A stretch of 64,000 bases of DNA from a virus, in UHGV virus genome UHGV-1375844; one strand, given 5' to 3'. The notes below the pieces were generated by a model. That model was not told the origin of the DNA. It saw only the letters and a program-made list of their open reading frames with translations, and did not search any database. Within the stretch, counting starts at the first letter, position 1. Each line of letters starts with the position of its first letter. Below, one piece after another: positions 6,243-64,000 of this stretch. The translations under genes and the position numbers were made by a program.

Positions 6243-6999
6243 GCGCTATTTTGCATAACTCAGACCGTACACAGTCCTCGCTCTCAAACTCAATCCGACC
6301 AACATATTCAGACGGCTTAAAGCGCTCCATAGCGTCTTCCAGCCCGGATTTGACGCTGCCAGGAAGATCGCATTGGGTGATGTCCCCGTTAACGATAACC
6401 GTGACGTTTTCTCCCATACGGGTCAGGAACATTTTCATTTGTGACGCTGTCACGTTTTGAGCTTCATCCAGAATCACCACAGCGTTTTCGAAAGTGCGCC
6501 CACGCATGTAAGCGAAGGGGGCAATCTCCACTTTGGCCACCTCTGGCTTTAAGTAGTATTCGAGAAACGAGCCACCCAGACGCTTCTGTAGCACGTCATA
6601 GACTGGCCGGAAGAACGGAGCGAACTTCTCGCTCATGTCGCCCGGAAGAAAGCCCAGATCTTCGTCTGCTTGCAATACCGGCCGAGTCACGATGATCTTG
6701 TCTACTTCCTTATTAAGTAGACGCTGCGCTGCAACGGCCGCGGCCAGGTACGTTTTACCGCAGCCAGCTTCGCCAGTGGCGAACGTTAGCGTTTTGGTAT
6801 CGAGGGAGATGAGATAGTGGGCCTGGGCCTCGTTTCGCGCTTCGAGAGGAGAGTTGTCGCGCTTCGGTTTCGGAGGCAGAGCAGGGGCGGCAGCCAGTTC
6901 GTCAACAATGATTGTGTCAATTTCATAGCCACGAATACGTGATTTTGACTTCAGCGCCTGGCGAGCTGCGCGACGCGCCTGTTTACGTTTGTTTCCCAT
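6226..6999 (-). CDS. phoH: PhoH-like ATPase
   Basis: Walker A GEAGCGKTYLAAAVAA and downstream PhoH-like motifs; start re-placed at the internal ATG at 6999 (MGNKRKQARR) which has AGGA 6 nt upstream. Confidence 0.85.
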   Translation of the reverse strand: MGNKRKQARRAARQALKSKSRIRGYEIDTIIVDELAAAPALPPKPKRDNSPLEARNEAQAHYLISLDTKTLTFATGEAGCGKTYLAAAVAAQRLLNKEVDKIIVTRPVLQADEDLGFLPGDMSEKFAPFFRPVYDVLQKRLGGSFLEYYLKPEVAKVEIAPFAYMRGRTFENAVVILDEAQNVTASQMKMFLTRMGENVTVIVNGDITQCDLPGSVKSGLEDAMERFKPSEYVGRIEFESEDCVRSELCKIALEAYQ

Positions 7000-7046
7000 G
7001 TTGAGTCCTTTCAAGTGAGTCACCGGCCTGACTATAGCTAAATATG

Positions 7047-7066
7047 ATAAGTAAGTCATTACTTAT
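7047..7066. repeat. Intergenic palindrome family (ATAAGTAAG-n-CTTACTTAT), copy
   Basis: ataagtaagtcattacttat between the PhoH start and the plus-strand moron. Confidence 0.6.
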
Positions 7067-7205
7067 TTATCGTGGCTTTGTGCTAGGTTAAAACAGCTTT
7101 GGGGAGCTGGTGCGCTTAAGGCCTTCCAGAAAACTCAAACTAGCTGAAATAGTAGGGTCAATTAGGTATCATTCCTTTTCAAATTTAACCAAAGACTCTT
7201 ATAAA

Positions 7206-8438
7206 ATGCCTGCTTTGTTAATTCTCATAATTGGGACATTGATGATTATTTTCTGGGATGTGATTAAGGAAAACGTAGAGGTTATAGGTACGCTTGCCAC
7301 TTCACTTGCCTTTTTTGCTACTGCCTGGGCTGCTTACGAGGCAAGGCATAGTGCAAAGGCGGCAATGAAGGCGACCCAGCTGACGGCTGATTCACTTCTT
7401 GAAATGAAAAAAGCCTCTTTTAAGGAGTGGTACGGCATTTTACTTGAACAGCATAATAAATTACTTGAGGATGTTAATAAGACCTTATTGGATGACAATG
7501 AACTTAATACCAGGTTGAATATTAATGTCATAAGAGGTATTTATTATCACGTAACCAAAAATCCTGCTTACATTAAGTATATTAATCACATAATTTTAAT
7601 CCTGAATTATGTAGATAAAGACTTTTATCTGCCGTCCTCGGCGGAAAATGAAAAGAGATCTTATATAGAACAGTTGCGCAACAGCATTAGCCCAAAAGTA
7701 AGCCTGCTGATTGCTATTTTTGGCCTTAATATCGACAATAATAAAACTTATGATGCAAAGAAACTTTACAACCTTCTAAGCAAATATAACTTTTTTGAAA
7801 ATGAGCTATTTTTTGAAGTTGCAATATCAAAAGTTCATTACTTAGACACTTATGTCGCCGAGATATTTGACAAAGAATACCGAAAAGACGTTGAATTTTA
7901 TGTTGATGAAACGGTTTGTGGTCGTGCGCTCTCTTTTATCAATACGACATGCCGACACCATAGGATTACTTTCGCAGTTCAGTGGTCTTACAACAACCCC
8001 TGCCAAAAGCATTTGCTGAAAAGATTCAATGACCTACCTATGCACATGAGAAACGTCATTGGGCTGAACATGGAAAAAGCAGCCGAGAAAGTGGCTACGT
8101 TTAATTCTGAGTTGCCTGGTTTTGTCGGCTGGGAAATTAAGATTGCTAATAATAAGGTGAGAGTAATTAAGGATGAAAAAGAACTGAAAAGGCTAATAAA
8201 GCTTTACTATAAATACCCCTTTGACCCTCGACAAACTGGTATCGTGTTAACCAATGGTTTCACCAATAGATTCGCCGATGAGATTAGGAATAGTATGTCT
8301 AGCTATGCTTTACATAAAGCCTATCTAGAACTCAGCTCTAATCCGAACAAAGATCAGGTAATTGATGAGATTGTGTCAGAGGTTGAAAAAATGGTCGATA
8401 AATTTAAAACAGAACTTAATTCTTTCTGCTTTAACTGA
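7206..8438 (+). CDS. Hypothetical membrane-anchored protein, AT-rich moron
   Basis: Only plus-strand gene in a minus-strand block; markedly AT-rich, K/N/I/Y-rich; N-terminal hydrophobic helix (PALLILIIGTLMIIFW); own terminator; ORF track begins at GTG 7110, first ATG at 7206, no clear SD. Confidence 0.55.
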   Translation: MPALLILIIGTLMIIFWDVIKENVEVIGTLATSLAFFATAWAAYEARHSAKAAMKATQLTADSLLEMKKASFKEWYGILLEQHNKLLEDVNKTLLDDNELNTRLNINVIRGIYYHVTKNPAYIKYINHIILILNYVDKDFYLPSSAENEKRSYIEQLRNSISPKVSLLIAIFGLNIDNNKTYDAKKLYNLLSKYNFFENELFFEVAISKVHYLDTYVAEIFDKEYRKDVEFYVDETVCGRALSFINTTCRHHRITFAVQWSYNNPCQKHLLKRFNDLPMHMRNVIGLNMEKAAEKVATFNSELPGFVGWEIKIANNKVRVIKDEKELKRLIKLYYKYPFDPRQTGIVLTNGFTNRFADEIRNSMSSYALHKAYLELSSNPNKDQVIDEIVSEVEKMVDKFKTELNSFCFN

Positions 8439-9275: not shown

Positions 9276-9362
9276 TGGCGGAAGGTAATGGAATCGAACC
9301 ATCACCGCGCTCGCAGTGGGACGGTTTTCAAGACCGCTTGAGCACCATGCTCCCTACCTTCC
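9276..9362 (-). tRNA. tRNA-Ser: tRNA-Ser (anticodon UGA), class II with long variable arm
   Basis: Reverse complement gives GGAAGGT...GGTCTTGAAAACCG...GGTTCGATTCC...ACCTTCCGCCA; 7-bp acceptor stem, encoded CCA, anticodon loop CTTGAAA. Confidence 0.7.
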
Positions 9363-9604: not shown

Positions 9605-9737
9605 TGGTGCCGGTTAACGGACTCGAACCGTTGACCTCTGGCCTAACATCGGATCGTTGTCATTGACCAGCCATGCTGTCTACCGAAGTAGAAACGATGC
9701 TTTGGCTCTCGCGCTCTACCAACTGAGCTAAACCGGC
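9605..9737 (-). tRNA. tRNA-like element with a ~58-nt internal insertion (disrupted or intron-bearing tRNA)
   Basis: Reverse complement starts GCCGGTTTAGCTCAGTTGGTAGAGC (acceptor + D arm) and ends AACGGTTCGAGTCCGTTAACCGGCACCA (T arm + acceptor + CCA), but 79 nt separate the D arm from the T arm; the insert contains a UUCG-tetraloop hairpin (tctac-ttcg-gtaga). Confidence 0.35.
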
Positions 9738-9739
9738 AT

Positions 9740-9814
9740 TGGCGATGATGGGTGGATTCGAACCACCGACCAGTTGATTAACAGTCAACCGCTCTACCAC
9801 TGAGCTACACCATC
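9740..9814 (-). tRNA. tRNA-Asn: tRNA-Asn (anticodon GUU)
   Basis: Reverse complement GATGGTGTAGCTCAGTGGTAGAGCGGTTGACTGTTAATCAACTGGTCGGTGGTTCGAATCCACCCATCATCGCCA folds as a canonical cloverleaf; anticodon loop CTGTTAA. Confidence 0.8.
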
Positions 9815-49697: not shown

Positions 49698-50956
49698 CTT
49701 GATCCGCCAAGAATAACACGATTTTTAACCGGATACCTACGATGAACTGGATAACCTAATGCATCCGCGCTGTGCTCAATGCCACCACTCTTATCCATAT
49801 CCCGTGAGCCAGGTTTATAAATTACTTTTTCAAGCGAATCGATAAGGTGTTTGCATTTCGGGTCGATATAAAGCCGCGTTTCGCCAGATGCGCTTAACAG
49901 CATACGGTTTACGGCATTCACACGATCCGCTATTGGCGGGTGCTTCTTCGGAAAATCAACCCGTAGAAAACCCTTTTCCTTAAAAATGTCTACGTCTGAC
50001 TCACCACGAGCGTGCTGACGATACGCGCCGGCAGGGTCGGGGAAAATGGTCACATGTGATTTCCATCGCCAGTAACGGCGCTCCAGCTCATCACACACTT
50101 CTGCCGTGTTGGATGAGAAAAGCACCAACTCGTCAACCGCCCACAACTCGCCATTTGGCTGTGGCTGGAGAATGACAGAAGACATCGGATCGATGTTGAA
50201 GTCCTGACCAACCCAGATCGGCAGCTTTGGATTGAACTGCAACGGCTTCACATGCACGCTTCGGTCGAAAGGATAGTAAACACGACCGGACATGTTTTCG
50301 AAGCTGGCCAGGTACTCCTGAGCGAACGACTTAGGGTCCATATCATTCTTCGCGGCTTCGATTTCAGCGGTCGGAACAAACGGAGAGTCAGCAGTAACAA
50401 ACTGCCAGCTCTTCCACTGGCCTTTACGCTGTAGCTCTTTGTTCTGGCCGATCGTCCACAGCTTATGGAACTCAGAGAAGCCTTTCGGCGTACCGATGAT
50501 CAGCGCCCCGCCCCGGGTGGATGACAACGTCGGTCGAAGAACCTTATACCAGGTGTCCGGCTTCATATCCTGAAACTCGTCGAGTACCACGAAGTGAAGC
50601 GCAACACCACGGAGCGTATCGGGCTTATCGGCGCCTTTGAGCGCGATCTCAGAGCCGTTCTTCAGCACGATTGTCATCGTGGTATCGTTTTTCTTACGAA
50701 TCCATTTCCGGGGTAAAACTTCCTGCAGGTCATCCCACAAAATCTGGCGTGCCATCTGATAAGTCGGCGCGACATACCAGACACGTTGTTTTTTCTCTTT
50801 GGCCGCGGCTCGGATAATGGTGGAAATCGACAACCGGGATTTACCCCAGCGTCGACCCGCACATACCACCTTGAATCGATGTGGCGACTGGAAGACTTTC
50901 ATCTGTCCAGAATGCAGCTGTACGAGACTCAGAGACGACGGGATGCTCATAATCAA
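49694..50956 (-). CDS. terL: Terminase large subunit
   Basis: Walker A VVCAGRRWGKS, Walker B-like VVLDEFQDM; 420 aa; overlaps terS by 4 nt. Confidence 0.8.
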   Translation of the reverse strand: MIMSIPSSLSLVQLHSGQMKVFQSPHRFKVVCAGRRWGKSRLSISTIIRAAAKEKKQRVWYVAPTYQMARQILWDDLQEVLPRKWIRKKNDTTMTIVLKNGSEIALKGADKPDTLRGVALHFVVLDEFQDMKPDTWYKVLRPTLSSTRGGALIIGTPKGFSEFHKLWTIGQNKELQRKGQWKSWQFVTADSPFVPTAEIEAAKNDMDPKSFAQEYLASFENMSGRVYYPFDRSVHVKPLQFNPKLPIWVGQDFNIDPMSSVILQPQPNGELWAVDELVLFSSNTAEVCDELERRYWRWKSHVTIFPDPAGAYRQHARGESDVDIFKEKGFLRVDFPKKHPPIADRVNAVNRMLLSASGETRLYIDPKCKHLIDSLEKVIYKPGSRDMDKSGGIEHSADALGYPVHRRYPVKNRVILGGSR

Positions 50957-59112: not shown

Positions 59113-59138
59113 AGCGCCCACTATGGGCGCTAGTTTTA
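59113..59138 (+). terminator. Rho-independent terminator (agcgccca-ctat-gggcgct + T-run)
   Basis: Hairpin followed by agtttt. Confidence 0.6.
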
Positions 59139-59356: not shown

Positions 59357-59430
59357 AAAAGCGCCCACTATGGGCGCTTTTTTCGTTTCAGGATCTCCAC
59401 CATAACGCGCCAACAATGGCGCGTTTTCTT
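59357..59430 (+). terminator. Tandem rho-independent terminators
   Basis: aaagcgccca-ctat-gggcgcttttttcg (59357-59382) and aacgcgcc-aacaat-ggcgcgttttctttt (59404-59430). Confidence 0.65.
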
Positions 59431-59859: not shown

Positions 59860-59990
59860 GAGGCAAACCCAGCCGTTTCCCGAAAATTCCCTGGCCGTTT
59901 CCCTACGGCTGCCCGAATCGCTCTCTGGCCGTTCCTGAAGTTTTCCCCTGCGGCAGCGGGCGTCCAAAAAGAAAGGGCCGTTTCCAGCCC
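59860..59990. repeat. Iteron-like array 1 (GCCGTTTCC motif, 4 copies)
   Basis: cagccgtttccc, ggccgtttccct, ggccgttcctg (variant), gggccgtttccag at irregular 25-40-bp spacing. Confidence 0.55.
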
Positions 59991-59998
59991 CTCCCCTC

Positions 59999-60481
59999 TC
60001 ACACGCCAGGCAGGATATGAATGCGGTTGCTGACATACATCTCTTTCACGAAGTCCCCGCATGTGACTTTCCATTCACTGACACCGGCTTCATAAACCAC
60101 GTTTTTGCATTTAAGTGCATTGTCAGCGATACGCACACCCTGCGCTGTTGCTTCCTGGTCGGTGAAGTCGAACCCGGATTCAGTTTTGACCCACACGGCA
60201 ATTTGTGTTGCCAGCTCGATGAGTTTTGACTGGCAGAAGCGACCGCGTCGTACCGGGAAGATAAATACCCCGAACCCCGCGGTGGTAACGTAGGCTTTTT
60301 CGAATACGCGTTTATGTCGACGGTTACAGATAATGTTGCTGGCGATCTGCTGCTTCTCTTTCCCTGACAACTCAATGGTCTCATTGCCACGCCAGGCGCC
60401 CAGCACGCTTTTTTCAATGTCAGAGTAAGTCACGGAGATCGTGCCATGCTCGGGAGTGTTCACAGTAGCGATATAGTTCAT
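59999..60481 (-). CDS. Hypothetical early protein (160 aa)
   Basis: ORF track; own promoter-proximal motif upstream. Confidence 0.5.
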   Translation of the reverse strand: MNYIATVNTPEHGTISVTYSDIEKSVLGAWRGNETIELSGKEKQQIASNIICNRRHKRVFEKAYVTTAGFGVFIFPVRRGRFCQSKLIELATQIAVWVKTESGFDFTDQEATAQGVRIADNALKCKNVVYEAGVSEWKVTCGDFVKEMYVSNRIHILPGV

Positions 60482-60493
60482 CGAGATAATCCT

Positions 60494-60517
60494 TTAAACA
60501 ATTTGTTTTCTTGATGG
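60494..60517 (-). promoter_or_regulatory. Conserved promoter-proximal near-palindrome, copy 6
   Basis: ttaaacaatttgttttcttgatgg; on the minus strand follows GATAAT (-10-like) with a TTGGAC -35-like box 16 nt upstream. Confidence 0.5.
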
Positions 60518-60704
60518 TTTAATTATCGCTACGCGTATCAGGCGTCCAAGCGCTCTATTCCGGCATCTGTTTGCCTGAAGGGAGTCAGAGGGTCGTTCGG
60601 TAGCCTGGCGGTAAGAGGTGGGTGTTTTGCCTGATGTGATGAGGTTGGTATATCTGGCGGGCAAGCGGTGCTATCTTGGCCGCAGGTAACTCAGGAGACT
60701 CAAG

Positions 60705-61220: not shown

Positions 61221-61244
61221 GTAAACAATTTGTTTTCTTGTTGG
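61221..61244 (-). promoter_or_regulatory. Conserved promoter-proximal near-palindrome, copy 7
   Basis: gtaaacaatttgttttcttgttgg followed by taattatcgc (GATAAT on the minus strand). Confidence 0.5.
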
Positions 61245-61329
61245 TGTAATTATCGCAGTGTGAATAAGGCAGAAAACATTTTGTTATCGGGGGCAAGTAA
61301 GTGGCGCGGGATTCGCGCCACTGGCGGGA

Positions 61330-62175: not shown

Positions 62176-62199
62176 TAAACAATTTGTTTTCTTGATGGC
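62176..62199 (-). promoter_or_regulatory. Conserved promoter-proximal near-palindrome, copy 8
   Basis: gtaaacaatttgttttcttgatgg; TATTAT -10-like hexamer on the minus strand. Confidence 0.5.
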
Positions 62200-62304
62200 G
62201 TAAATAATACCAGTGTGAAAACGGTGACAAAGCGTGTCGTTACGGCGCTGCGCTGCCCCGGAGGTGGCAAACAACAAAAAGCCACCGTGCTGGTGGCCTC
62301 ACTC

Positions 62305-62767: not shown

Positions 62768-62790
62768 CTAAACACGTTGTTTTCTTATTG
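62768..62790 (-). promoter_or_regulatory. Conserved promoter-proximal near-palindrome, copy 9 (variant AAACACGTTGTTTTCT)
   Basis: ctaaacacgttgttttcttattgg followed by ttattatcgc. Confidence 0.45.
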
Positions 62791-62897
62791 GTGTTATTAT
62801 CGCAATAAGAAAACGGGGAAAAAGCATTCATTAAAGGCTGATGTGTTTGTGTCGATTTATTGCTATGTATGTATCTGGCTAACTCAGAGGGAATGTG

Positions 62898-63140
62898 ATG
62901 AGCACTAACAACTACACAGACGGCTACTTCAGCATCGATGTCGAGAGAGGCGAACTGCTACATGGCGGCGCCTCTGTTGGACGCATTATTCTGGTCAACG
63001 GCCAGATTTACACAGAGCTGGACGATAGCAGTGCAGACACACCTGTCGTCTCCGGTCCCTTCGGGACAAGAGAGGAGGCGTTAGATGATTTGTGGGACAA
63101 CAGGGATGATGCAAATCAGGGCAGCGAGATTTTCGAATAA
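62898..63140 (+). CDS. Hypothetical acidic protein (80 aa)
   Basis: ORF track starts at GTG 62895; ATG at 62898 with GAGGGA RBS. Confidence 0.4.
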   Translation: MSTNNYTDGYFSIDVERGELLHGGASVGRIILVNGQIYTELDDSSADTPVVSGPFGTREEALDDLWDNRDDANQGSEIFE

Positions 63141-63289
63141 ACGTCCTCGGCAATTTCGCCACCAAAACCCTTAACCCTTTACACTAGCTCTGGCTTCCCG
63201 ACATGAGCGTGCGAAGCTAGTCTGGTCTCAACACTCAATTGCGGGACTCACAAGTTCCCGCAATATTCAGGTTAACGAGAAGCAAGACA

Positions 63290-63450
63290 CACTCCCGCAG
63301 CGCTCCCTCGCTCTTTACCGGGATGCATCCGTTTCCTGACCTGAAGCCAGCCTTTTCCCGGTTCGCATGACGGGATTCTCCCCGTTTCCCTGAAAAACCC
63401 AGCCGTTTCCCTGCGGCGATGCTCCCGTTTTCCAGTAGGGATGCAGCCTT
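63290..63450. repeat. Iteron-like array 2 (CCGTTTCC motif, 5-6 copies)
   Basis: atccgtttcctg, agccttttcccgg, ccccgtttccctg, agccgtttccctg, cccgttttccag, agccttttctctg. Confidence 0.55.
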
Positions 63451-63499
63451 TTCTCTGGATGGCCCGCAGGTTGACCGTAGGGGTGGGGAGGGACGTTAC

Positions 63500-64000
63500 G
63501 GGAGATAAAATCATGGCTTGAATAAATACGGGAAAAGTAGCGATCCCCCTCTTCCCCTTCCCACTTATACCTCCAGTTAAATCTCTGCGTTCCTCTCTCC
63601 TTTAATCGAATCTGTCTTCCCTCCGATAAGGCTCAATACGATGACTACCTCTGTACGTGAAATGGGTGGTTCGTACTCTCTGCCGGCATATGTCTTTTTG
63701 CGCTTCTTGAGGCTGTTCTTCTATGCGTTTTCTTCTGGGTTGTTTTCGTCTCTTTGGGTGTTCTTCTTCTCTGGGTATTGAGTAATGGCAGGTGTGCTTT
63801 CCTCTTCGTTTACTTGCTGAGAAGGAAGTGTGGGGAATGGCAGTAGGGCGCTTTAGTTGTTCTCTGCATATCAAGTAATAGCGTTCCCTGCTTTTCAGGA
63901 CTTTGCGCTCTCTTCAGGGGTAATGGTGGGTAAGTAAGATTGCAACGGCTCCTGTTCTGGTCTGGGTTTGCCCGGGGTTGCATTCTGAGCGCTGTTCTCT
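63500..64000. other. ORF-free pyrimidine-rich (T/C-skewed) region at the window end
   Basis: Strong T+C excess on the plus strand; no RBS-supported ORF; follows iteron array 2. Confidence 0.4.

Follow-up and report, generated by a model that had tools for sequence, protein, structure and literature searches.

SSU5/pHCM2-like elements are among the commonest phage-plasmids in Klebsiella, Escherichia coli, Enterobacter and Salmonella, and some of them carry resistance genes. In the searchable papers on these elements, neither a lytic origin nor an immunity operator has been mapped. Here we describe a non-coding locus of such an element, found at the right-hand end of a 64,000-nucleotide stretch of the virus genome UHGV-1375844 (hereafter the window; coordinates refer to it unless another frame is named). 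With megablast, positions 62800-64000 match 184 plasmids as well as Salmonella phage SSU5 (84%), and the best match is pAMS-38a of Enterobacter hormaechei (95.7% identity, full length), a 109-kb circular, non-mobilizable IncFIB element that encodes phage structural proteins and a phage-type replisome and has a RepA replicon. Judged by this match and by the gene content of pAMS-38a, the window is part of an SSU5/pHCM2-like phage-plasmid.

A first-pass annotation of the window, made from the letters alone, had flagged 63450-64000 as an ORF-free (open reading frame-free) segment and suggested that it might be a genome terminus, an origin region or a non-coding RNA gene. We find that this interval lies midway along a conserved non-coding stretch of 1.3-1.65 kb, so that the extent first given was too small: the non-coding region begins at 63141 and continues for ~790 bp beyond the end of the window. 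In pAMS-38a the whole unannotated stretch, which we call the gap, is 1651 bp long and occupies 6342-7992 in the coordinate frame of the pAMS-38a locus (L001), where 6342-7992 equals window 63141 onward; 63141..64000 is its in-window part. No other non-coding stretch of the element is as large or as conserved. The comparisons below establish it as a conserved, non-coding, repeat-dense element whose function would lie at the level of DNA or of primary sequence. The interpretation that we rank first, with a probability of roughly 35%, is that the gap is a phage-mode replication origin or origin-control region. The origin suggestion of the first-pass annotation thus stays viable and in the lead, but unproven.

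Conservation and coding status

A blastn search recovers the gap from 857 PLSDB plasmids (Klebsiella 449, Escherichia 224, Enterobacter 90, Salmonella 49, and others) as well as from 12 phage records, which cover six or more genera at 65-83% identity, and the matches usually span L001 about 6500-7765. We aligned 42 distinct copies, 34 of them from IMG/VR. Across relatives the flanking genes are replaced or have diverged past nucleotide detection: in Cyrano-type E. coli elements none of them gives a nucleotide match, some being recognizable at 55-59% amino-acid identity, and segments of the gap are still 69-83% identical. The gap outlasts its neighbouring genes, yet it is blank in annotation pipelines. 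NCBI's pipeline leaves it unannotated in pHCM2 and in the Klebsiella, E. coli and Salmonella Newport relatives as well, and short, non-homologous ORFs appear in it only where phages were annotated ad hoc (SSU5, Cyrano, PhiR41_1). Nearly all genes of the window lie on the minus strand. The gap is flanked by convergent genes in the window lineage, where the small plus-strand gene 62895-63140 ends directly to its left, and by co-directional minus-strand genes in other lineages.

Conservation is uneven along the gap, the parts of which are described below. In four genomes, variable alignment columns make up 32-35% of the core, of the R2 zone and of the right part, 44-45% of the R1 and R3 repeats and 55% of the T-rich spacer; among third codon positions of these genomes the share is 44-64%. 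The first three thus vary less than third codon positions, so that parts of the region are under sequence constraint, and the T-rich spacer is constrained in composition only. The spacer's variability, near the rate of third codon positions, would suit an evolutionary relic, that is, decayed cassette DNA with leftover repeats that looks conserved only as the family is young, and so would truncations of the gap associated with insertion sequences (IS) in large Klebsiella plasmids and one contig with unrelated DNA within R2. We consider a relic unlikely: conservation exceeds that of synonymous sites in the core, in R2 and R3 and in the right part, the gap persists where flanking genes have been exchanged or have diverged, its composition is maintained in all lineages, and protein-level remnants of neighbouring genes are missing from it.

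The truncated copies just mentioned are found in large Klebsiella IncFIB/IncU plasmids that retain only L001 7059-7765, near IS5/IS903 transposases; as IS-flanked remnants they are uninformative on function. The contig (L017 from IMG/VR, 7.2 kb) departs from the alignment at L001 ~7050, inside the R2 zone, and consists of unrelated DNA from there onward, likely an insertion or rearrangement. When a 22-nt conserved pattern was scanned against one genome per species, real copies were found only in Kluyvera. Four pattern matches in Photorhabdus lie inside an ABC-transporter ORF and were dismissed, as were the remaining matches, of which the three tested out of 12 gave no further alignment and whose count fits the ~17 that we estimate to be expected by chance.

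The claim that 63450-64000 holds no ORF supported by a ribosome-binding site (RBS) is borne out. The ORFs in the gap are all short and none of them belongs to a Pfam or PHROG family; all four in-window ORFs lose their start codons in other lineages, and the length differences between homologous stretches are not multiples of 3, so that reading frames are broken. Codon periodicity is absent. Variable alignment columns across the gap in nine relatives fall into the three phases as 216/209/212 of 1088 (p=0.94), whereas the same test on a neighbouring control gene gives 12/46/8 (p=2.5e-9). The ORF at 63602..63874 on the minus strand (90 aa from a TTG start), suspected from the outset of being compositional, is indeed not a gene: it matches no Pfam or PHROG family, its TTG is missing even in the closest relative and the homologous stretches in E. 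coli relatives contain 4-5 in-frame stops. It stays open because the minus strand is T-poor here and stop codons are rare.

A missed protein-coding gene is scarcely credible on these grounds. One candidate is a small hydrophobic peptide encoded at 63641-63781(+), an ORF present in the window and its closest relative whose product matches a transmembrane segment in Pfam weakly and below threshold. All other lineages have GCG, GAG or GTG in place of its ATG, Klebsiella has a 1-nt indel, and the gap as a whole is without codon periodicity. A pseudogene of a neighbouring gene was rejected, as tblastn finds no protein-level remnants in the gap, and chains of tiny ORFs coupled via TAATG motifs were rejected on spacings unfit for a shared frame and, again, the lack of periodicity. 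The sequence was also followed past the window by way of the relatives, where a normal gene might have come into view: the further ~790 bp are without an NCBI-annotated gene in most records, and the idea that the region holds no gene is not refuted.

At the right border of the gap lies an unannotated ORF, L001 7763-7948(-), of 61 aa from a GTG. Its 7763-7866(-) portion, ~560-670 bp past the window end, encodes 34 aa from an internal ATG (MQFSPELRQRIAAWGENDLSLREQINDELDHL[I]) and may be a small unannotated gene; homologous DNA was met with in two Newport-type relatives alone, L010 and L012.

Base composition

The segment had been described as strongly pyrimidine-skewed. The skew is real but of another kind: 63450-64000 is G+T-rich, that is, poor in A and C, and its pyrimidine content of 0.570 is unremarkable (window mean 0.527, sd 0.031; top 8.6% of 551-nt windows). 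It is pyrimidine-rich (0.66) only in 63540-63800, and C (0.225) is less frequent than G (0.263) overall. This excess of G over C is combined with an AT skew of -0.348 (T far above A), in the lowest 0.2%, to give a G+T content of 0.608 (z=4.2), a value above that of every other 551-nt window; in 63700-64000 it reaches 0.674. The gap is equally extreme in the complete element. On the gene strand of pAMS-38a, the 14 most A+C-rich 500-nt windows are all inside the gap, with a maximum of 0.698 against a mean of 0.508 (sd 0.029; z about 6.5 across the 109-kb plasmid). The skew is retained in 15 of 15 diverse relatives, from L001 6781 to 7765.

Repeat architecture of the gap

The gap contains three families of direct repeats, which we call R1, R2 and R3. 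The R1 cluster of the gap, R1-B (63326..63462, plus strand), consists of six direct repeats with the core CC(G/T)TTT(C/T)C at 63329, 63351, 63382, 63403, 63425 and 63447. Their spacing of 22, 31, 21, 22 and 22 bp, about two helical turns, is kept in relatives. Against an expectation of 2.3, the window contains 11 exact copies of the R1 8-mer, a count reached by none of 100 shuffles, and six of the 11 are in two clusters.

To the right of R1-B lies the conserved core (63465..63580; 32% variable columns), which reads GTTACGGGGGAT..TTGAATAAATACG..AGCGAT.CCCCTC..CCCACTTATAC and is kept as primary sequence, not as a hairpin. It is followed by the T-rich, A-poor spacer (63581..63765; 55% variable columns), which contains degenerate TTCTTCTNTGGGT units and evolves near-neutrally in sequence; its composition across the 15 diverse relatives is A 0.11-0.18 and T 0.37-0.45, and Tandem Repeats Finder (TRF) reports a 19-bp unit in 2.2 copies. 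The R2 zone (63766..64000, plus strand; 35% variable columns) holds direct repeats of the form TTCTCYG(N)GTAT(N)RRGTAATGGC with cores at ~63782, 63834, 63875 and 63920. There are 5-6 copies of R2 (TTCTCYGNGTATNRRGTAATGGC), the fifth beginning at the window edge and the sixth lying beyond it. The family fills 63450-64000 and is confined to the gap, of which the R2 zone is the G+T-richest part (0.67).

Just past the window, at L001 7251-7340, R3-B comprises three 31-bp units. Beyond it follow a palindromic copy of the promoter/operator motif D1 described below, two AT-rich patches of 27-32% G+C (L001 7385-7445 and 7560-7660, 45-220 bp from R3) and a block of repeated (A/G)TCAAC(G) motifs. TRF finds no non-coding repeat arrays on the 109-kb element besides those of the gap and the RepA (IncFIB) iterons, ACTCACTACAGTGGATA, which are 30 kb away and unrelated to R1, R2 and R3. 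No Chi sites are present in the gap, CCTGGTGG in R3 being no more than Chi-like. One IMG/VR relative (L013) has gained one 31-bp unit at L001 ~7285 and carries four R3 units instead of three. Two further ideas about R2 were set aside. R2 looks by eye like a degenerate D1 copy (ATTAC.CCA..AC..GA.AA.AAC), and an nhmmer profile of nine canonical D1 copies detects no R2 unit; a C-to-T change that is concerted in three R2 copies occurs in a single lineage, too little for co-evolution.

Repeat arrays in non-coding DNA are typical of packaging regions, and R2 could on that basis be the binding site of the terminase small subunit in a virion genome terminus or cos/pac site. This is very improbable. 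The gap is separated by ~13 kb from the terminase genes, upstream of which lies another non-coding region, of 900 bp (record 62812-63714), and the ends of the linear SSU5 record adjoin the terminase genes, with the gap 11-12 kb from those ends. The sequence also runs on without interruption in all circular records, so that the genome terminus suggested in the first-pass annotation finds no support.

At its left end the gap contains an inverted repeat (63238..63264), read from the sequence as ATTGCGGGA-N9-TCCCGCAAT and situated ~100 nt downstream of gene 62895-63140(+). It is retained in the Salmonella and Enterobacter lineages and has no T-run on either strand; it is possibly a terminator hairpin.

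A second repeat cluster and a shared promoter motif

Two of the three repeat families recur ~3.5 kb to the left of the gap, in what we call module A (59873-60650). Here R3-A lies upstream of a D1-type promoter, which is followed by gene 59999-60481(-) and then by R1-A. R1-A (59873..59990, plus strand), the second R1 cluster, is just 3' of the gene; its first two units are 22 bp apart and have an identical 17-mer, AAACCCAGCCGTTTCCC, in common with R1-B. R3-A (60571..60650, plus strand), of the same family as R3-B, has three units with a ~29-31-bp period and the consensus T(A/T)GCCTG-N6-(A/T)(G/T)AGGT(G/T)GGT, 45-125 nt upstream of the D1 promoter of gene 59999-60481. From the shared arrangement, the gap can therefore be written as R3 - [non-coding, R2-rich, skewed DNA] - R1 and module A as R3 - promoter - gene - R1. 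The 22-bp R1 pair is found 3.1-4.3 kb from R1-B in every relative with enough flank, and Cyrano keeps the arrangement despite being without the intervening plus-strand gene. In every lineage examined, the two R1 clusters have the same orientation and bracket a variable small-gene cassette.

D1 is a ~55-nt repeat acting on the minus strand, with copies at 60495-60549, 61222-61276, 62176-62230 and 62769-62823 (plus-strand coordinates), and at least nine genes of the element have one upstream. Its gene-strand sequence is TGnGATAAT-aACACCAAC-AAGAAAAC-AAAnTTGTTTA, followed by an RBS and ATG, and it is composed of an extended -10-like hexamer and then a 13-bp palindrome. Partial copies are found just upstream of the DnaB-like helicase gene, nrdB, a terS-like gene, Rha and ydfZ, and in the gap itself (record 50041-50074, E=0.0035, and 50289-50270, E=0.006). 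D1 looks like a phage-specific promoter/operator class, and it could also drive cassette shuffling.

The gap thus gathers motifs that are in regulatory positions elsewhere: R3 upstream of a D1 promoter, R1 at the 3' side of the same gene, and the D1 operator palindrome. Together with the two co-oriented R1 clusters around the small-gene cassette and the 21-22 bp phasing of R1, this would fit a regulator-binding hub or decoy that loops with module A or titrates regulators, setting thresholds for lysis-lysogeny or for early genes. P1 incA and lambda OL-OR looping are comparable to such action. The neighbouring proteins have no DNA-binding domain matches, R2 is unique to the gap and not D1-like by hidden Markov model, and a hub leaves the extreme G+T skew unexplained. 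We regard a hub as a tentative alternative, ranked below an origin.

A further ~880-bp non-coding region lies to the left of R1-A. It contains twin, near-identical hairpins at 59113-59136 and 59360-59383 (plus strand), AGCGCCCACTATGGGCGCT followed by a T-run, which look like Rho-independent terminators.

A candidate phage-mode origin

From the non-coding status, conservation, repeats and skew described above, and from the absence of RNA structure described below, we infer protein binding and, at the probability given at the outset, origin function. R1, R2 and R3 would be the binding sites of sequence-specific DNA-binding proteins, and a nucleoprotein complex would assemble at the gap. Phage-mode replication, carried out by the helicase, primase and Pol III alpha that the element itself encodes, would start from the gap or be controlled there, and plasmid maintenance would be left to the RepA/IncFIB origin 30 kb away. 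The R1/R3 cluster found 3.5 kb to the left would then act as a partner site, comparable to those of P4 ori/crr or SPP1 oriL/oriR.

Several observations argue for this proposal. A second origin is expected because the element encodes a full phage-type replisome, and by elimination the gap is where it would be sought, since it has the only iteron-like array besides that of RepA. Iteron origins have at least three direct repeats of ~17-22 bp at helical phase; R1 offers six such copies, and R3 adds three 31-bp units. The phasing of R1 at two helical turns, the partner cluster a few kb away and the AT-rich patches inside the region all point in the same direction. Strong keto (G+T) skew marks strands that spend much time unpaired, and the extreme skew of the gap suggests as much for this locus.

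Other observations weigh against an origin. No initiator or rep-like gene is found within 6 kb on either side of the gap, and neither DnaA boxes (TTWTNCACA) nor the IHF consensus (WATCAANNNNTTR) occur in it. The AT-rich patches are 700-900 bp away from R1, and cumulative GC/AT skew rises monotonically around the plasmid, with no switch in polarity at the gap. As R1, R3 and D1 are in gene-regulatory positions near 59999-60481, a transcriptional role fits them equally well. The spacer keeps its composition and not its sequence, which suggests selection on RNA or on a physical property rather than on binding sites. Finally, literature searches on SSU5, pHCM2, phage-plasmid origins, iterons and non-coding features turned up no description of the gap, the one relevant data set being the Cyrano transcript levels of PMC9928086.

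RNA structure and transcription

A structured RNA, the third of the earlier suggestions, finds no support in the folding evidence. Rfam has no match to the gap, whether at its gathering thresholds or with the cutoff relaxed to E<=1. In a sliding RNAalifold analysis of 16 diverse sequences, the structure conservation index (SCI) is 0-0.33 on both strands, and single-sequence folds are no better than shuffles (z -0.14, 0.02 and +1.08). The consensus fold of the core has an energy of -3.2 kcal/mol, with a compensatory change in one of seven predicted pairs, and a G-rich/C-rich hairpin at 63480/63550 was discarded since its G-rich arm is absent in the E. coli and Klebsiella lineages and shows no covariation. 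A sigma-70 promoter scan of the gap finds none, and terminator-like matches are at chance level.

A non-coding RNA gene, whether structured or a protein sponge, accordingly has very little to recommend it. The R1 units read GGAAA on the minus strand at ~22-nt spacing, one of them folding with GGA in the loop, which would suit a CsrA-type sponge, and the minus-strand RNA would be A-rich, with A-R-N triplets for Hfq. The loop placement is limited to that one unit, in a fold no better than shuffles and with Rfam empty, and (A-R-N)3 and (A-R-N)4 runs are not enriched over composition; both sponges were rejected. The near-absence of covariation, the lack of a sigma-70-like promoter and background expression in the LF82 lysogen, described next, also speak against an RNA gene.

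In the E. coli LF82 lysogen, expression falls from 57 units at CYRAN_102, just upstream of the gap, to the floor value of 5 at CYRAN_103, inside it (PMC9928086 S1 Table). This drop would be in keeping with a Rho-loading (rut) transcription insulator, which would part the upstream replication/nucleotide-metabolism operon from the downstream small genes with promoters of their own; the repeats could in that case be sites for roadblock or antitermination factors. The gene orientation favours this proposal, since with nearly all genes on the minus strand the transcript entering the gap would be the untranslated, C-rich, G-poor and essentially unstructured one, over ~1 kb. In six lineages, 89-100% of 78-nt windows have a minus-strand C/G above 1 (medians 1.6-2.3), the RNA of the skewed part barely folds (mean minimum free energy only -10 to -17 kcal/mol per 150 nt), and composition is conserved where sequence is not. 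A minus-strand RNA of the gap would thus have the C-rich, G-poor, unstructured and untranslated stretch of at least 80 nt that marks a rut region. However, a rut zone needs neither 1.3 kb nor three conserved direct-repeat families and a core, the drop in LF82 precedes the skewed part, and the minus strand of R1, at the left, is rich in G. An insulator is possible, and we place it after the origin and before the hub; these two are close rivals, nearly as good as the origin reading.

A more speculative proposal, which we rate below the origin, the insulator and the hub, is that the ~1-kb keto-skewed core of the gap would be a strand-asymmetry device: either an R-loop or displaced-strand (transcript-primed) lytic origin, or a regulated Rho-loading insulator gated by proteins bound to R1, R2 and R3. 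If so, the switch from plasmid to phage would be coupled to one conserved non-coding locus in more than 850 clinical Enterobacteriaceae phage-plasmids.

Elsewhere in the window, tRNA-Ser(tga) and tRNA-Asn(gtt) are called by ARAGORN in the area of 9276-9362, 9608-9737 and 9740-9814, all on the minus strand. The 130 nt at 9608-9737(-) match an Rfam tRNA model without an ARAGORN call and may be an interrupted or degenerate tRNA.

Comparison with known systems

If the gap is a phage-mode origin or a control hub, it offers a defined experimental target and a conserved typing marker; should it prove no more than a termination zone or a relic, there is nothing out of the ordinary in it. The gap can be set beside several well-known systems. 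Iteron origins and their partner sites (P1 oriR/incA, F, R6K; P4 ori and crr; SPP1 oriL and oriR; lambda ori) resemble the gap in having a phased direct-repeat array, here R1 at 21-22 bp, a second cluster of the same repeats a few kb away, and AT-rich patches in the region. P1, with oriR and oriL, is a likeness of another kind, for the present element also has a separate plasmid origin. Unlike iteron origins, the gap has no adjacent initiator gene and no DnaA or IHF sites, and it contains three unrelated repeat families instead of one, all of them unrelated to the element's own RepA iterons. Nor is an extreme G+T skew over 1 kb a feature of those origins.

Rut regions such as lambda tR1 share with the gap an untranslated, unstructured RNA with C above G in the main direction of transcription, located at a module boundary. 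The gap differs from them in being ten times the typical rut length and in its conserved repeat families and core, which rut does not need. Dispersed operators, exemplified by P1 C1 and by OL/OR looping in lambda, are similar in that the same motifs (the D1 palindrome, R1 and R3) are common to the gap and to promoter-proximal positions, and in that paired clusters are 3-4 kb apart. However, R1 and R3 are direct repeats and not palindromes, and R2 is confined to the gap. The gap, a real, conserved and uncharacterized element, is best assigned to the known cis-acting, repeat-rich control/origin regions.

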